Source: a virus. Taken from it: a stretch of DNA of 64,000 nt. The notes beneath the pieces were generated by a model, which saw only the letters and a list, made by a program, of their open reading frames with translations, did not search any database and was not told where the DNA came from. Positions 9,083-47,987 of this stretch are shown piece after piece (the stretch's first letter is position 1; every line of letters starts with the position of its first letter). The stretch spans positions 123,356 through 187,355 of the IMG/VR virus record IMGVR_UViG_3300030099_006944; one strand, 5' to 3'. The translations under genes and the position numbers were made by a program.

Positions 9083-10321
9083 GTGTTTAAATCCCAAAAT
9101 GAAATCACATCTACTAAACGAAAGATGCAACAAACAGCACGATGGAAATTGTATTCTCAAAAACCCTCGGTTGCTACAAAAGATCTAAACCTCATCGAAT
9201 ATCAATATTACGGATTAATAGATACAGAAAATTATTCAGTAGTTCCAGATGAAATAATGATGAGAGAAATAAAATCTCATGCACCAGAATCTCGTAATTT
9301 GGTTTTTAACTTCGTAGCAGACGCCTTTGAGGCTCTACAAAATCATTTATCAAAAGCAGTTCTTCGAGGCCAAATAGATCAGGAAGGTCCGTTTGGCAAC
9401 TTAAAAGCCTTCAAAGCATATACACCCCCTAAAAACAGATACGAAAAACATATCTCAAATATATTATACAAATTGAATACCACACAAATTCCAAAAGTAA
9501 CCGGCATTAATAATATAACATCTTATAATGACTATGTCAATTGTTTTTTTGATATAATTAACAAAAGCGAAAAGGATAGTGCAATAACACTAAGCAAGTT
9601 TAATAAATCATACTATTCCAGTATTTTAGACACCGGGCTGGCTATCAGTTACCATGATGTGCCGATGAATGATAAAAAACAAAAGTTCAATAAAATTTTA
9701 ACCAAATCTAGATTTAACTATTTCAGAGATATATGTAAAAACTTTGGGTTTTCTACGGTCTTTGATAACCCAAACATATTAGTTTTTGACGTTGCCAGTC
9801 CAGCAGCAAAGAAATATTTGGAAGCATATAGTATTTTTAATATACCATCTATATTTGCAAATTACTATATCAAGACTTATATATATGATATAGAATATAT
9901 TAATAATTATATTAATTTATATTATAATAAATATGTTAGCATGTATCCTTTAACTATAGAAACAGAAGTACACTGTAATAAAACATTTCAAAAAAGAATT
10001 ACTAGACAAAAGATAGATCTATCATACAAGATACCAATAGATATCATGATAGAAAAATATGTCATGATTCGCAACAGAGAAGAAGGCTCCCCATTCAGCG
10101 AAGGAAAAACAAAAAGGATTGTAAAAAAGGCAATTTATTTTCAAAAATCATTTGACAAAACCAAAGCACTAAGTTATATTAGTAGAGAGTTCAAAGATCA
10201 GGTATGGAACAAAAATTTTGGATATCATGATCGCCTTGAAAAAGAGCGTCAAAATAATTCCTTTGAGTCTGCCGCATTTGAACCAGATACAACACCCTCA
10301 TCAGGAGGGTCAGGATACTAG
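9083..10321 (+). CDS. Hypothetical protein (412 aa)
   Basis: Long ORF, GTG start with AAGGAG SD. Confidence 0.6.
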   Translation: MFKSQNEITSTKRKMQQTARWKLYSQKPSVATKDLNLIEYQYYGLIDTENYSVVPDEIMMREIKSHAPESRNLVFNFVADAFEALQNHLSKAVLRGQIDQEGPFGNLKAFKAYTPPKNRYEKHISNILYKLNTTQIPKVTGINNITSYNDYVNCFFDIINKSEKDSAITLSKFNKSYYSSILDTGLAISYHDVPMNDKKQKFNKILTKSRFNYFRDICKNFGFSTVFDNPNILVFDVASPAAKKYLEAYSIFNIPSIFANYYIKTYIYDIEYINNYINLYYNKYVSMYPLTIETEVHCNKTFQKRITRQKIDLSYKIPIDIMIEKYVMIRNREEGSPFSEGKTKRIVKKAIYFQKSFDKTKALSYISREFKDQVWNKNFGYHDRLEKERQNNSFESAAFEPDTTPSSGGSGY

Positions 10322-23963: not shown

Positions 23964-24838
23964 CTGGCATCGTTCCAGTTGCGGGACAATCTCTGGACTT
24001 TGATCAACCTTGGCCTGACTGCATGATGCCAATTGCTCCTGATTTTAGTTTGTTGGAAGCCGCTGTTGCTGAGTGTGCTTGGGCCGGCTGTGATACAATT
24101 TGGATAATTTGCAACGATAATATAGCAGCTCTAATAAAAAAGAAAATTGGAGATTTCGTCGGTGATCCCGTGTGGGCTTATCGTAAATTCGATAAGTATC
24201 CCAACGAAAGTAAGCGTCAAATACCTGTTTATTATGTTCCGGTGCATCCAAAAGACAGAGACAAGAGGGATTGCCTAGCTTGGAGTGTCTTGCATGGGTC
24301 TTTAACAGCATTCAAAGTATCAGACGAGTTGTCTAAGTGGGTTATACCAAACAAATATTATGTTAGCTTCCCTTATGGTTATTTTCCAGCCTATCAACTT
24401 CGAGAATATAGAAAAATTATTTCGTCCTCAAAGAACGTGTATATAACATCTGACGACAAGTCAATGAAAGATAATTATTATTGCTCTTTTTCTTTTGGAA
24501 AGGACGAATTTATAGAATTTAGAAGGATAATCAGATCTGGTACAGGCCGTTGGAGACCCGGAGTTGACTATAAAGAGTATGACGCTTTACCAATTGAAGA
24601 AAGATGGTCAGCTAGGTTTTTTGAATTAGAACAAGTGTTTGAGCCATTTGACACCGATCGAGCACAAAAAATACCAGTTGAAAATTTTTATAATATTGGC
24701 TCTTGGAAACAGTATAAACTCTTTATGTCCGAGAATCTCGATAATGAAATAAAAAGGCCATCAAAAACAATTTTGTTAAATCAAGCTTACAAACCGATTG
24801 GGAAAAACTACTTAGAGGGTGATGCGGAAGAAACTTAA
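23921..24838 (+). CDS. Nucleotidyltransferase-like (GT-A fold) protein
   Basis: AGIVPVAG...PDCMMPI...AGCDTIWII resembles sugar-nucleotidyltransferase N-terminus, divergent. Confidence 0.6.
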   Translation: MEVTREDNTKYFHLAGIVPVAGQSLDFDQPWPDCMMPIAPDFSLLEAAVAECAWAGCDTIWIICNDNIAALIKKKIGDFVGDPVWAYRKFDKYPNESKRQIPVYYVPVHPKDRDKRDCLAWSVLHGSLTAFKVSDELSKWVIPNKYYVSFPYGYFPAYQLREYRKIISSSKNVYITSDDKSMKDNYYCSFSFGKDEFIEFRRIIRSGTGRWRPGVDYKEYDALPIEERWSARFFELEQVFEPFDTDRAQKIPVENFYNIGSWKQYKLFMSENLDNEIKRPSKTILLNQAYKPIGKNYLEGDAEET

Positions 24839-25427
24839 ATTTAAAAAATTATTAAATCATTATCGATCTCTCCAATATGAAGAAGAATACGTCAAAGAGG
24901 TTCTAAAAGAAGCTCATATTGAATTTGACGAATATTATAGGGAATTTTGTAGAATATATCTTGTCAACATAGAGAGGTTGGAAAAAAAGAAAAATGATAG
25001 ACTCAAAGCAGCCTACGAACAGAGTGAAAAACCATCCATGAAAGGCGTTGACGAAAAATTGAGAGCAAAAGATTATGATCATAAAAATGTTTTCAAGCAA
25101 ATAGCCAGAAAACTCCATCCAGACAAATTAAGTGAGGACGATCCGAGACTTAAGGAATTTGAAGATGATTTCAAAACTGCTGCCGCCGGCATCAATGACG
25201 GAAACTGGGGTGACTTGTTTAATATTGCAGAGAAACACGATATTGACATCAAGGATTATGACACAGTTAATGAATCAATTAAGGATTCAATCAAAGTTCT
25301 AGTTAAAAAAATAACAGAATTAAAAAATCAATATTCTTACATGTTTTACGAGTGTGAAGATGACAAGAACTGTAAAGATAATATAATAAAAAACTTTTTA
25401 AGACAAGTATTTGGACATAATTTATAA
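24819..25427 (+). CDS. J-domain (DnaJ-like) protein
   Basis: FKQIARKLHPDK with HPD motif. Confidence 0.7.
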   Translation: MMRKKLKFKKLLNHYRSLQYEEEYVKEVLKEAHIEFDEYYREFCRIYLVNIERLEKKKNDRLKAAYEQSEKPSMKGVDEKLRAKDYDHKNVFKQIARKLHPDKLSEDDPRLKEFEDDFKTAAAGINDGNWGDLFNIAEKHDIDIKDYDTVNESIKDSIKVLVKKITELKNQYSYMFYECEDDKNCKDNIIKNFLRQVFGHNL

Positions 25428-25434
25428 TTTATAC

Positions 25435-25463
25435 TTGACAAATGATACTAATTAGGTTATCTT
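25435..25463 (+). promoter_or_regulatory. Sigma70-type promoter
   Basis: TTGACA-17-TATCTT; spacer contains ACTAATTA. Confidence 0.65.
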
Positions 25464-25483
25464 ATATATGTGAGGATAAAAAT

Positions 25484-26434
25484 ATGAAAGAAGTTATGAA
25501 TCATTGGCGAGGCTTTATCAACCCAGATTTGAGCCCAATTATAAAAAAGAGACTGGAAGAGGCTCTCACCCGACGTCAGTTTTTAGCCGGCACTGCTGCT
25601 GTTGCTTTACTTTATGCGATCATGAATAGTGATTATTTTAAGGCATTAACTGATCAACAGCAAGATGAATTAATTCAGGCTTCACCAGAGGAGTTAGCCT
25701 CATTGGGCCTTGAAGACCCTGCTTATATTAAAGCTGTTCGTGAATACGAGAGGGAAGAGACTGAATCCCCACGTGATAAGTATGAAGGTCTAAGTTCACG
25801 GGAAATTAAAGATCTGCAATTCTCTACGATTGGAAAGCTAATGATAGCACCAACAAAACTACCAGATGATAGAGAATGGCGCCTAGCACCCACATCACAA
25901 AGCCAAGTCAGTGGTTATTATGCTTATGCAACAGAGTTGGATTTGGATCTTATAGCAGAAACAAACCCAGAGATAACAAAAGCCATGGATCTCGCATACG
26001 ATTTTTATAAGGGGTTTGGTCTAACTAGATTGATGAAGTATGTATATGGACAACCGGAGTTTTTTAGCTATACTACAATGGAAAAAGCGAACGAAGGTCA
26101 GTTGTTTGACACCATTGAAACCGAGGCTACACAAACCAACTACTTGACCGGCAAGACAGAAAACATAAAAGTTAGGAAACTTCCATTAGCTTGGACAGTA
26201 GCTAATCGAGTGCTTATAGACCAAGTTTCTTTTTTAGAATCGGAACTGCAAGAAGCAAAGACAGATGAAGAGATCGATGCTGTTCTAGAAAGGTATGGCG
26301 TAGGTACAGAATATGGTAGTGGTTATTCAAAAACATCGAAATATGATGTGGTTAAAAAATTAAAAAGAATTGCCGGCAATTCTTTGAGTAGAATTGAAGA
26401 TGACAGCAGGGTTGTTGGAAAACATAGTAATTAA
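25484..26434 (+). CDS. Hypothetical protein with internal twin-arginine-like motif
   Basis: 316 aa; TRRQFLAGTAAVALL at about residues 27-41. Confidence 0.6.
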   Translation: MKEVMNHWRGFINPDLSPIIKKRLEEALTRRQFLAGTAAVALLYAIMNSDYFKALTDQQQDELIQASPEELASLGLEDPAYIKAVREYEREETESPRDKYEGLSSREIKDLQFSTIGKLMIAPTKLPDDREWRLAPTSQSQVSGYYAYATELDLDLIAETNPEITKAMDLAYDFYKGFGLTRLMKYVYGQPEFFSYTTMEKANEGQLFDTIETEATQTNYLTGKTENIKVRKLPLAWTVANRVLIDQVSFLESELQEAKTDEEIDAVLERYGVGTEYGSGYSKTSKYDVVKKLKRIAGNSLSRIEDDSRVVGKHSN

Positions 26435-26445
26435 TTGGAGGAAAA

Positions 26446-26625
26446 ATGTTAAGAATTGTGAACGTTATTTTATTTATATCAGTGGTCTTGGGTATATATC
26501 TCACCACAGAGGTTGATGATAAATCAGAAAAACAAGAAGTGGTTGAAATCTATCCGGGTGATACCGCTGATGAGTATGAAAAAATAAAGGAGATTTTAGG
26601 GTCCGAAAAGGCTTCGACGGAGTAG
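26446..26625 (+). CDS. 59-aa single-TM protein overlapping tmRNA 5' end
   Basis: Hand-translated MLRIVNVILFISVVLGIYLTT...GSEKASTE*; GGAGG SD 26437-26441. Confidence 0.65.
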   Translation: MLRIVNVILFISVVLGIYLTTEVDDKSEKQEVVEIYPGDTADEYEKIKEILGSEKASTE

Positions 26626-26930
26626 AATCAAGGGGAGAGTGCATGCAGGGAAGATACGCCCTTAACAGTTCAAGTTTTATAAACGCAAACAATAATTTGT
26701 ATTTCGAAGAAGCCCTAGCGGCTTAATCGGGTGGCTGCTCCGAGCCATCTATCCAAGAGGAGCAAAACAACAGGACAGTTGTAAAAATCAAAACAACTCA
26801 ACGCAACAGGACGGTAAGCGTTGTTTTATGACCGTCTATCTTTCTGGTTGGAGAAATAATCAGATAAGCATGTGAACGACTCAAACTAAGACTATTGCGG
26901 ACGCGGGTTCAACTCCCGCCGGATCCACCA
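26599..26930 (+). ncRNA. ssrA: tmRNA
   Basis: Acceptor GGGTCCG/CGGATCC-ACCA with G3.U70, 5' TTCGAC motif, T-arm GCGGGTTCAACTCCCGC, tag frame 26685-26726 ANNNLYFEEALAA*. Confidence 0.95.
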
Positions 26931-26936
26931 AACATT

Positions 26937-27008
26937 GCGGGTGTGGCTCAGTGGTAGAGCATCGCGTTGCCAACGCGAGGGTCGTGGGTTCGAATCCCAT
27001 CACCCGCT
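26937..27008 (+). tRNA. tRNA-Gly(GCC), CCA not encoded
   Basis: GCGGGTG/CACCCGC acceptor, TCGCG-TTGCCAA-CGCGA anticodon arm, GGTTCGAATCC T-arm, U73. Confidence 0.95.
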
Positions 27009-27030: not shown

Positions 27031-27195
27031 ATGAAATATTTAAACAGTAAATGGTTTACATTCTTTTGTGTATGCCTTAATTTTTATTTTGCCGTGCAAT
27101 CCTTTTTCTTAGGAAATTGGCTTGTGTTTGGCATATGCAGCTTGTTTGCAGCAATCTGTGGTTATAGTTTTTGGTACCAAATGGAGGAAAAATGA
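27031..27195 (+). CDS. 54-aa two-TM membrane protein
   Basis: MKYLNSKWFTFF...; GGAGG SD; true start downstream of tRNA. Confidence 0.7.
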   Translation: MKYLNSKWFTFFCVCLNFYFAVQSFFLGNWLVFGICSLFAAICGYSFWYQMEEK

Positions 27196-28073
27196 AATAT
27201 CTATTACCTTTTTTATTAGCTTGCACGGAAGTGTCTATTAACAAAATACCAACAGATCCTGTTGATACATCGAAACCCATAGCGGATACCACAGAACCTT
27301 CACAGCCGGCCTCTGAGCCCTCTGTGGAGCCTATGGAAGGTATCGGAGGGTATGTACACTACTATCTTCGTCAAGTGGCTTGTCCGGCTTGTATGGGCGA
27401 ATCAAATGAGATTACGGTTGAGTTTGATGCAAGGTTTCACGATAGAACTTTTGATACCTACACAAGGCACATTCCCGAACAAGGTCAGTGCACCCAAAGT
27501 ATAACTCAGATATGGCCAAACTTACCCCTAATAGATATGGGATCAGAAATAAAAGCCAGAGCTAACAATTCGACTATTCATGCGTACCGAACAAGCCAAA
27601 ATAATTATTTTTATGCTTGGTATACAGATGCCTCTTATATAAGAGACACTGTACACTCTATATCTCGCGAGGATAACTATGAATTTGCAGAGTTCACATC
27701 GTTTCATGGTTTCGATTACATTGAGCCTTATGAGTTACGCTTTGTAGATCCTTCGTATGCTTTTGCTGCTCCGATATACCGTTCTGGTGCGACTTTCTGG
27801 TGGGCTCCCTATGGTACCAACACTACCTTTACAATAACGCTAGCAGTATATACTCCTGACGGCTCATCGTTGTTAGGTTATGTTGCCTGTTCAGGTGGTG
27901 ACTCTGGCATGATGACCGTTCCCGGACAATATTTGTCCTCTTATCCCTATGGGGCTCTTGTCGCTGTGCATATGGCTCGGCACAAAGTTGAGCTAGTACC
28001 ATGGGAAGAACAAAACACTTTCCTTGAAACACATATGGAGTGGGAAGTAATAGGAACAGGACATATAGAATGA
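27192..28073 (+). CDS. Putative lipoprotein
   Basis: MKYLLPFLLA-C lipobox-like, EPS-rich linker, CxxC. Confidence 0.65.
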   Translation: MKYLLPFLLACTEVSINKIPTDPVDTSKPIADTTEPSQPASEPSVEPMEGIGGYVHYYLRQVACPACMGESNEITVEFDARFHDRTFDTYTRHIPEQGQCTQSITQIWPNLPLIDMGSEIKARANNSTIHAYRTSQNNYFYAWYTDASYIRDTVHSISREDNYEFAEFTSFHGFDYIEPYELRFVDPSYAFAAPIYRSGATFWWAPYGTNTTFTITLAVYTPDGSSLLGYVACSGGDSGMMTVPGQYLSSYPYGALVAVHMARHKVELVPWEEQNTFLETHMEWEVIGTGHIE

Positions 28074-28372
28074 CAAAGAAGCAAAAAGACATATTAATAA
28101 AAGATAGACAGAAGATCGGAAGACCAAAGAAATACAAAGTTGTTTTCTACAATGACGACTATACTCCTATGTTCTTGGTCACTTCGATATTGATAGAAGT
28201 ATTTAATAAAGGATTACCCGAAGCACAATCGATTATGATGAGGGTACACAAACAAGGAAAAGGAGTAGCAGGTGTCTATTCAAAAGAAATCGCACAAACA
28301 AAAGTTGAAACAACAAAAATGTATGCAAGAGAAGCAGGATACCCGCTCCACGCCGAAGCAGAACCAGAGTAG
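28070..28372 (+). CDS. clpS: N-degron adaptor ClpS
   Basis: YKVVFYNDDYTPM, MMRVHKQGKGVAGVY, YPL. Confidence 0.92.
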   Translation: MTKKQKDILIKDRQKIGRPKKYKVVFYNDDYTPMFLVTSILIEVFNKGLPEAQSIMMRVHKQGKGVAGVYSKEIAQTKVETTKMYAREAGYPLHAEAEPE

Positions 28373-28424
28373 TTGCCCCTGTTGTGAATGTGATCCATGT
28401 GATTGCGGTTGGGGGTCTTATTAG

Positions 28425-28887: not shown

Positions 28888-29107
28888 CATAAACATCGGC
28901 GATTTGGTTCGCTTAAAGAAGGAGCATGACCCAGAGGGCAAGATAGGAATAGTCACAGACATTAGCCCAAGATATTCTCACCTAGTTTCACATGGAAAGA
29001 CAAAGGTTATAAGAATATATTGGCCAACCATCGATACAATCGATTGGGAATATGATTTTTTTCTAGAAAAAATTGACCCAAAGGACTTGACAGAAGATAA
29101 AGAATAG
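28880..29107 (+). CDS. Small SH3/KOW-like protein
   Basis: INIGDLVRL...IGIVTD...W. Confidence 0.6.
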   Translation: MSDINIGDLVRLKKEHDPEGKIGIVTDISPRYSHLVSHGKTKVIRIYWPTIDTIDWEYDFFLEKIDPKDLTEDKE

Positions 29108-46418: not shown

Positions 46419-47987
46419 ATGAAATATTATAATCAAGGGTTTGCCCTCAACCAAAAAATTATTGAGGGTGTAGACATCCTTGCTAATAATGTTGCAACCA
46501 CTCTCGGTCCACGAGGGAGGAATGTAGCATTGTATCACAAGGAACAAAATGTACCAGTTATTACCAAGGATGGTGTAACGGTAGCAAAATTTATTACACT
46601 TGAAGACCCGTTCCAAAATCTTGGAGCTCAGGTCATCAAACAAGCAGCAGAGCGATCTGTTGCTGACGCTGGTGACGGTACCACTACGGCAACCGTTCTA
46701 GCCAGAGCAATCCTTAAAGGATCGCAACGTTATTTGTCATCGGGTGTTTCCCCTGTGGAACTCAAACGAGGCATTGACAAGGCAGTTACGGCTGTCACAG
46801 AACGTCTTTCTGATATGTCTAGACCAATTCAGACTGAGGAAGACATTCGCCATATTGCTACGATCTCAGCAAACAATGATAGATCCATCGGTACTCTAAT
46901 CGCGACAGCAGTCGACAGAGCAGGTAAAGATGGGTCGGTCTTAGTCGAAGAGGCTCGTAGTCTTACTACCTCCCTTGACTTGATCGAAGGGTTCAGATTT
47001 GATTCTGGGTATGTTTCTAATACGTTTATTAATAACCAAAGAACAGGCACAGTTGATTACGAGAACCCTTTGATTCTTGTCACTGATGAGAAGGTAGAAC
47101 ACGTTGAGCAGATCATGCCAACGCTTGAAGTTTGTGCTAGGGACAATCGTCCTTTGCTACTTATTTCAAATGATATTGAAGGTCAAGCACTAGCTGCTTT
47201 GATAGCCAATGCTGTACGTGGTACAATGAAAGTTTCAGCAGTCAAGGCACCCAAGTATGGCGAGGAAAGACGGAGTATCATGAAAGATCTTTGTGCTTCT
47301 ATTGGAGCTACTTTTATTACGAGAGAACAAGGTTTAACTCTGAAAGATGTTAAATTGACTCACTTCGGTCAATGTAAAAAAATCAGTCTTACCAAAGGTT
47401 GGACAACTATCGTTGGCGGTAAAGGAAACCCAGAGGACGTTGAAACTCGTATTGAAGCTGTGAAGAATGAAATCCAACAGACAGATAACCTTTCTGAGTG
47501 TGAAAGATTACAGGAGCGGATCACAAGACTTGCTTCCGGTGTTGCTGTCATTAAAGTCGGAGCAGCCACTGAGGTTGAAATGCTAGAAAAGAAACATCGG
47601 ATTGATGATGCTTTGGAAGCAGTAAGATCAGCCCAAGAAGAAGGTATCATTCCGGGCGGTGGTGTAGCGCTCCTCAGAGCCGCCACAGAGCTTTTTGTTG
47701 AAACAGAAAATGAAGAACAGTCCCTAGGTGCACAAGTGGTTTTACAAGCCTGTGAGGCTCCTCTAAGACAGATGGCGATTAATGCTGGTGAGTCTGAGGA
47801 TATCGTAATACAAAATGTTAAGAGCGAGACTGGTGATACCGGTTATGATTTTCTTAATAGGGTAATGGTAAGTACTTATGAAAAAGGTATTATCGACCCA
47901 TGTAAGGTTACAAAGTGCGCTTTGCAGAACGCTGCGAGCGCTGCTGGAACTTTACTTACAACATCGCATGCGATTGTTGATTGTTGA
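46419..47987 (+). CDS. groEL: Chaperonin GroEL
   Basis: TLGPRGRNV, ITKDGVTVA, GDGTTTATVLA, GVAVIKVGA, GIIPGGG, GIIDP; lacks GGM tail. Confidence 0.96.
   Translation: MKYYNQGFALNQKIIEGVDILANNVATTLGPRGRNVALYHKEQNVPVITKDGVTVAKFITLEDPFQNLGAQVIKQAAERSVADAGDGTTTATVLARAILKGSQRYLSSGVSPVELKRGIDKAVTAVTERLSDMSRPIQTEEDIRHIATISANNDRSIGTLIATAVDRAGKDGSVLVEEARSLTTSLDLIEGFRFDSGYVSNTFINNQRTGTVDYENPLILVTDEKVEHVEQIMPTLEVCARDNRPLLLISNDIEGQALAALIANAVRGTMKVSAVKAPKYGEERRSIMKDLCASIGATFITREQGLTLKDVKLTHFGQCKKISLTKGWTTIVGGKGNPEDVETRIEAVKNEIQQTDNLSECERLQERITRLASGVAVIKVGAATEVEMLEKKHRIDDALEAVRSAQEEGIIPGGGVALLRAATELFVETENEEQSLGAQVVLQACEAPLRQMAINAGESEDIVIQNVKSETGDTGYDFLNRVMVSTYEKGIIDPCKVTKCALQNAASAAGTLLTTSHAIVDC

Follow-up and report, generated by a model that had tools for sequence, protein, structure and literature searches.

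Reading of a protein-coding gene into a tmRNA gene of the same strand has been described in bacteria. In Carsonella ruddii, smpB reads into ssrA, an arrangement noted by Mao et al. (2009) and analysed by Hudson, Lau & Williams (2014; PMC4131195), and according to these authors tmRNA maturation should there give a non-stop smpB mRNA, itself a substrate of trans-translation. The same article counts 250 bacterial coding sequences that overlap a t(m)RNA gene located downstream of them in the same orientation, and it cites E. coli arfA, whose mRNA loses its stop codon through an RNase III cut and whose product is controlled by tmRNA tagging (PMC4131195). RNase P is established as the enzyme that makes the tmRNA 5' end (PMC3985003). 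Phages also encode tmRNAs, among them the mycobacteriophage Bxz1 group, Bacillus phage G and the OM43 phage Melnitz (PMC4131195, PMC9004378), and a tmRNA was reported in 2.3% of phage genomes (PMC9004378).

Here we analysed a phage locus in which a small membrane-protein ORF ends inside a tmRNA gene. As in the other phages, a complete tmRNA is carried by a large phage behind an early promoter, but in the portions of the above reports on which we draw, phage tmRNAs appear as stand-alone or riboswitch-controlled genes and a coding gene reading into them is not described. The likeness to Carsonella smpB-ssrA, as far as the quoted account goes, is a same-strand coding sequence with its stop inside the tmRNA gene, so the concept has already been published (PMC4131195) and the phage case is a new and unusually well-conserved instance of it. 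In Carsonella the gene is smpB itself, which implies direct autoregulation, in the degenerate genome of an endosymbiont, and the intrusion is described there as variable and as present in half of the strains only; in the phage the gene codes for an unrelated membrane peptide, the junction has stayed invariant among deeply diverged loci, and displacement of the tmRNA promoter to a site upstream of a cassette is evident from the comparison of relatives. The other bacterial overlaps (PMC4131195, Table 4) are likewise of the upstream same-strand kind and are candidates for high-frequency non-stop mRNAs, each going back to few evolutionary events, whereas the phage case involves a different gene family, evidence for promoter displacement and saturated synonymous divergence.

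The arfA system shares with the locus the logic of a cut inside an ORF that removes the stop and makes the fate of the product depend on trans-translation, which in the phage is predicted from the layout. The ArfA protein is basic and ribosome-binding, whereas the phage peptide is acidic and membrane-anchored, does not belong to the ArfA family (PF03889; no Pfam match at E <= 0.01) and would not be expected to have rescue activity. RNase III acts on arfA at a hairpin, whereas in the phage the expected enzyme is RNase P and its target a tRNA-like structure, and no arfA-type hairpin was found in the small ORF or its leader (26430-26640; no significant fold, z = -0.88).

The tmRNA gene and its neighbourhood

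The window, by which we mean the whole stretch of DNA analysed, is the last 64 kb of a 187,355-bp IMG/VR virus record. Its long ORFs lie almost all on the + strand, as do the promoter, genes and RNAs of the presumed transcription unit described below, and the genome is compact, with gene overlaps of the ATGA type. Genes of the window include a class II ribonucleotide reductase, a DnaB-type helicase, a DNA polymerase, a GroEL-like chaperonin, ClpS and a SprT-methyltransferase fusion. When the region was compared by blastn with 50,697 phage records, the tRNA-Gly was the sole match, so there is no cultured close relative among these records.

A one-piece phage tmRNA was found at 26599..26930 by ARAGORN and, with identical ends, by Rfam (RF00023, 103.3 bits against a gathering score of 47, model positions 1-374), and the Rfam result was the same on the whole phage record. 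Its tag reading frame (26685-26726) encodes ANNNLYFEEALAA and then a stop, with an alanine resume codon and a hydrophobic LAA-type degron at the end, as expected of a tmRNA. The acceptor stem is also tRNA-Ala-like: 5'-GGGTCCG pairs with CGGATCC-ACCA-3', with a G3.U pair and an encoded CCA, and this pairing therefore fixes tmRNA nt 1 at 26599. A T-arm is present and co-varies among the relatives.

The tmRNA is followed, 6 nt beyond its CCA end, by a tRNA-Gly(GCC) at 26937..27008 (ARAGORN, Rfam), and the remainder of the presumed transcription unit (27031..28372) consists of a 54-aa hydrophobic ORF (27031-27195), a 293-aa gene (27192-28073) and a ClpS gene (about 28070-28372; Pfam PF02617, E = 7.6e-28), whose synteny with the tmRNA region is retained in relatives. 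There is no SmpB gene in the phage record. Upstream of the promoter described below lies a 202-aa gene (24819-25427) with a conserved HPD motif, three homologs of which gave weak, sub-threshold matches to DnaJ (PF00226, E = 0.03-0.17), and the GroEL-like gene is at 46419-47987 of the window. Taken by their sequences, the HPD-containing gene, the tmRNA, ClpS and the GroEL-like gene suggest a phage protein-quality-control kit.

Overlap of the small ORF with the tmRNA gene

The small ORF (26446-26625) has an ATG start, 59 codons and a TAG stop at 26623-26625, and its Shine-Dalgarno sequence GGAGG (26437-26441) is separated from the ATG by 4 nt. Residues 4-21 are hydrophobic (mean Kyte-Doolittle 2.31) and form one predicted membrane helix; residues 22-51 carry a net charge of -7 and include the acidic C-terminal motif VEIYPGDTADEYEKIKE(I/L)L, with which the part coded by codons 1-51 (26446..26598) ends. 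The overlap (26599..26625) is 27 nt long and consists of codons 52-59 (GSEKASTE) and the TAG, which are tmRNA nt 1-27; it covers the acceptor-stem 5' strand, the D-loop analogue and the start of helix P2, and the stop itself is tmRNA nt 25-27. Since 26599 - 26446 = 153, or 51 codons, codon 52 begins with tmRNA nt 1.

A sequence-only reading of the same DNA had described a 59-codon ORF with a GGAGG Shine-Dalgarno sequence and an N-terminal membrane helix, a TAG 27 nt inside the tmRNA and a mature tmRNA 5' end on the boundary of codons 51 and 52. All of this was borne out. We reject any special meaning of the exact codon boundary. Rescue of stalled ribosomes is independent of codon phase, and the phase is a one-in-three outcome that was inherited from a single ancestor, so the exactness is without consequence for rescue.

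Conservation and selection in the small-ORF family

A word-indexed search of 5.8 billion proteins gave 16 protein clusters with 61-100% identity to the small ORF, 14 of them 59 aa in length, and the 59-aa protein is present on 39 contigs. The two odd lengths (55 aa and 78 aa) are gene-calling differences with the same TAG stop: in one cluster the caller chose a different start and in the other the TAG was read as Q. When the profile of codons 1-51 was searched against 1.84 billion representatives, it found its own family and one frameshifted allele and nothing else. Neither the 59-aa protein nor the 316-aa protein encoded in front of it belongs to a PHROG or Pfam family or has a usable Atlas match, and the cassette proteins gave no fold match in the PDB, where the model of the 316-aa protein was modest (pLDDT 62.8).

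The DNA was compared for 10 distinct family members. The junction of ORF and tmRNA was identical in the 10 distinct loci, and the tmRNA 5' end was the ORF start + 153 in nine loci, which are all those with a correct ARAGORN 5' end; in the tenth (L036) the ARAGORN call is misplaced and the junction sequence is the same as elsewhere. Across all 16 family members the overlap was identical except for one variant (S53 synonymous, K55R), and in none of the intact members of the 16 clusters does the ORF stop ahead of the tmRNA. The constancy of the last eight codons (GSEKASTE) comes from their being tmRNA sequence. The 16 nt around the Shine-Dalgarno sequence were invariant in 11 distinct sequences, and the start codon is invariant too.

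Over the whole small ORF, dN/dS was 0.06-0.3, with dS ranging from 0.6 to saturated. In codons 33-51, which encode the VEIYPGDTADEYEKIKE(I/L)L motif, the first two codon positions are conserved and the third is free, so that pS was 0.4-0.9 against a pN of 0-0.05 in most pairs, and pN was 0.11-0.16 in pairs with the most divergent member (L025). Protein conservation extends up to Leu51 and ends at the predicted cut site. On account of the dN/dS values and of the third-position wobble in codons 33-51, the small ORF is judged to be a genuine, translated gene under purifying selection, and it is a genuine same-strand coding sequence with its stop inside a tmRNA gene, as in the Carsonella type of overlap. 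Translation of the ORF and conservation of its overlap were two of the three points on which the sequence-only reading had made itself dependent, and both came out in its favour, the overlap and frame being kept in all intact family members found.

The frameshifted allele occurs in two low-coverage contigs (L077:1279-1419 and L078:1255-1395). One nucleotide is missing from a T-run at codon 35, and the resulting product of 46 aa stops before the tmRNA. Either a sequencing error or a natural loss of function could account for this allele.

Promoter layout and origin of the cassette

For the promoter analysis, a position weight matrix (PWM) was built from the phage's own promoters. The stereotyped class (cTTGACAA-N13-gGTTATATTAT) has 14 + strand sites of at least 28 bits, between window positions 10151 and 46365, and a different promoter flavour was seen after about 52 kb of the window. 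One member of this class, an early sigma70-type promoter at 25434..25466 (TTGACAA-N13-GGTTATCTTAT; 30.2-30.8 bits), lies 1.16 kb upstream of the tmRNA in front of a cassette of two genes. The first is the 316-aa gene (25484..26434), whose product has an invariant RRQF motif after an N-region of about 28 residues and then a hydrophobic stretch, like a Tat signal or a membrane anchor; the match to Pfam TAT_signal was sub-threshold only, and the protein is 65-83% identical in 7 loci (alignment A4). The second is the small ORF, which always follows at a distance of 11 nt.

In front of the 316-aa gene the PWM gave 23-33 bits in 6 loci, and between the start of this gene and the tmRNA no promoter of the phage's own class was found in 7 loci, where scores were at most 7.7 bits. 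A tmRNA promoter within the ORF, which the sequence-only reading had named as evidence that would count against it, is thus missing for this class (<=7.7 vs 23-33 bits). The T4-type late promoter TATAAATA did not occur between 25400 and 26700, there was no convincing terminator between 25484 and the tmRNA, and the next promoter of the class is at 29086 (30.4 bits), with none in the rest of the unit before this site. A promoter of another class (middle, late or weak sigma70), which is beyond the reach of the PWM scan, may lie within the coding sequence. From this arrangement, the small ORF and the tmRNA are most likely co-transcribed from the upstream promoter. The contig pieces of four RNA runs (<=4% of words) covered only conserved parts of the tmRNA or tRNA, mostly from other organisms, and none of them crossed 26598/26599.

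Related loci were gathered through the downstream 293-aa gene, and 9 of the 21 carry a tmRNA. Four loci (L003, L005, L006 and L008) are without the small ORF, and in these a promoter (TTGACA-N-GTTATATTAT; TTGACA-N-GTTATATTATAATTATAATA) directly adjoins tmRNA nt 1. In three of them (L003, L006 and L008) this promoter comes after a homolog of the 202-aa gene; in the clade of the window a promoter of the same class also comes after the 202-aa gene, and it now stands in front of the 316-aa gene. The correspondence between the promoters of the window and those of the four loci was established by eye from the alignment. The cassette with the 316-aa gene is absent from 5 related genomes that are near-complete or mostly complete. 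As promoter-adjoining tmRNAs are widespread among the related contigs, the cassette insertion is the derived state. By this comparison of sequences, the two-gene cassette sits exactly between the tmRNA and its ancestral promoter. The TAG at tmRNA nt 25-27 is also found in the tmRNAs of relatives without the small ORF, and it was therefore not created for this ORF. All loci with the cassette stem from one insertion event, which means that their number is not a measure of independent replication.

Packing around other phage tmRNAs

We also surveyed about 40 phage tmRNA loci with a common 5' motif. A promoter adjoins the tmRNA in about ten of them, and real-looking ORFs have their stop 0-11 nt before tmRNA nt 1 in about fifteen; a true overlap was confined to the family of the 59-aa ORF. 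Since ORFs that end 0-11 nt upstream are common, the tmRNAs of related phages are commonly embedded in mRNAs, and judging from these spacings the overlap in the window is the extreme of a continuum of tight packing. For the same reason, tight packing explains the layout without any regulation.

Discussion

The reading that we prefer, at a probability of roughly 55%, is that the small ORF is a real gene whose message would be made stop-less by excision of the tmRNA, as a tolerated by-product of the cassette insertion. In one clade of marine phages, a two-gene early cassette, encoding a predicted envelope-targeted protein of 316 aa and a predicted single-pass membrane protein of 59 aa, would have been inserted between the tmRNA gene and its sigma70-type early promoter. 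The small gene lacks a stop of its own, and its translation continues for 8 codons into the tmRNA, up to the ordinary TAG of the latter. Because the sole recognisable promoter is now the one in front of the cassette, both the tmRNA and the tRNA-Gly behind it would have to be cut out of a polycistronic mRNA, and a cut by RNase P at 26598/26599 would leave a small-gene message that ends at codon 51 with no stop. Ribosomes that finish before cleavage would make the 59-aa protein, so the full protein would come only from unprocessed transcripts, and ribosomes that reach the 3' end of a cleaved message would stall there, as substrates of trans-translation. The coupling would most likely be a tolerated by-product of tight packing that limits how much of the small protein is made. 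Depending on the rates of translation and of RNase P cleavage, stop-less messages could make up a small fraction. Co-transcription and the RNase P cut to a stop-less mRNA are considered most likely because neither an own-class promoter nor a terminator was found inside the cassette. This agrees with the sequence-only reading in so far as it had proposed a co-transcript processed to a 51-codon stop-less mRNA, for which the promoter layout, the coding status and the conserved overlap are good grounds.

Another possibility is that nothing but packing is involved. The tmRNA would then come mainly from an unrecognised promoter within the cassette, or the co-transcripts would be rare or rapidly degraded, and the small protein would merely borrow its 8-residue tail from the tmRNA. 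The compact one-strand genome with its ATGA-type overlaps and the continuum of spacings between ORFs and tmRNAs among the relatives are what such a process would produce, and there is a -10-like block at 26463 within the small ORF (12.9 bits). However, this block has no -35 element and most relatives differ from it in the first base, no full promoter exceeded 7.7 bits in the 7 loci, and the ancestral tmRNA promoter has been kept upstream of the cassette. We regard this explanation as unlikely.

By-product coupling, as preferred above, has also to be weighed against the proposal that the overlap is a selected feedback. In that case each matured phage tmRNA would obligatorily create one stop-less message for an early membrane protein, the 51-aa product would be tagged and destroyed while trans-translation works and would persist when it fails, and the free peptide would report rescue capacity and tune or switch an envelope function. 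The junction has indeed been kept through saturation of synonymous sites, with no own stop gained in 16 clusters, and conservation of the protein reaches Leu51 and ends at the cut site, but constraint on Leu51 and on tmRNA nt 1 explains this persistence equally well, and may be all that it reflects. The transcription unit also carries ClpS, which modulates the degradation of ssrA-tagged proteins by ClpAP. As to the precedent of arfA, which is cited in the article on Carsonella (PMC4131195), the phage peptide is acidic and membrane-anchored, matches neither ArfA nor any other family and has no known output. In the absence of tmRNA, moreover, its release from the ribosome would depend on a back-up factor. 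The ORFs of neighbouring phage lineages end in ordinary stops 0-11 nt ahead of the tmRNA, and there is a frameshift allele that may be natural (L077, L078). A sensor role of the peptide was the second half of the sequence-only reading, and it is the half that found no support: the peptide is acidic, membrane-bound and not ArfA-like, and packing explains the layout. We consider such a selected sensor distinctly improbable. If it were true after all, the locus would have built an ArfA-like logic on RNase P and a viral tmRNA, and the envelope function might be, for example, the exclusion of other phages or the timing of lysis.

The coupling might also run in the reverse direction, with ribosomes on tmRNA nt 1-27 unfolding the acceptor stem and blocking RNase P, so that less initiation on the ORF, as may occur under translational stress, would mean more tmRNA maturation. 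A ribosome terminating at nt 25-27 would sit over the 5' strand of the acceptor stem and the beginning of helix P2, and the Shine-Dalgarno sequence of the small ORF is strong. But the idea is purely inferential, the leader has no special structure (see the fold result above), and in sister phages the same tmRNA matures behind a short leader that is not translated; we consider this direction of control very improbable. Finally, the view that the small ORF is an untranslated frame, open by chance, as its shortness and its lack of a family match might suggest, is effectively refuted by the substitution pattern (dN/dS and the excess of pS over pN in codons 33-51) together with the invariant Shine-Dalgarno sequence and start codon.

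Under the preferred by-product reading, maturation of a viral rescue RNA should here generate a substrate for the very rescue pathway in which this RNA acts. If the coupling is functional, it offers a natural handle on the use of trans-translation by phages; if it is not, it shows how far packing may encroach upon a structured RNA and still be tolerated by selection. A clade of uncultured marine phages is the setting of this conserved layout, and for annotation it carries a warning, namely that overlap with a tRNA-like gene alone is no ground for discarding an ORF.

Variants of the tmRNA and its neighbours in related phages

Two hybrid tmRNAs were seen among the related contigs (L030:1513-1844 and L035:313-646). 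Their first approximately 25 nt are of the cassette-clade type (GGGTCCG...GGAGTAG), and the sister-clade type (CGAGTCC) is seen in the 3' acceptor strand and the T-arm. As a result, the acceptor stem contains a U4.G wobble and a C5.A mismatch, and helix P2 shows apparent mismatches. This combination suggests either that the cassette spreads through recombination events that break within the tmRNA or that the contigs are chimeric metagenomic assemblies.

Gene stops 0-11 nt before tmRNA nt 1 were found in L043/L057 (a 116-aa membrane ORF), L061, L076 and L052/L063/L070/L073/L074. In such other lineages, for example where a TAA stands immediately before the GGG, an RNase P cut would leave the stop at or near the mRNA 3' end. 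A small basic protein with a KSAGVRARKGLR-type motif is a recurrent neighbour of the tmRNA in other lineages. Cys-rich micro-ORFs of about 20 aa (MEKCECCGC...-type) end 1-6 nt before the tmRNA in L018, L065, L066 and L076, and a similar Cys-rich frame is present in the window at 28323-28424, where it overlaps the end of clpS.
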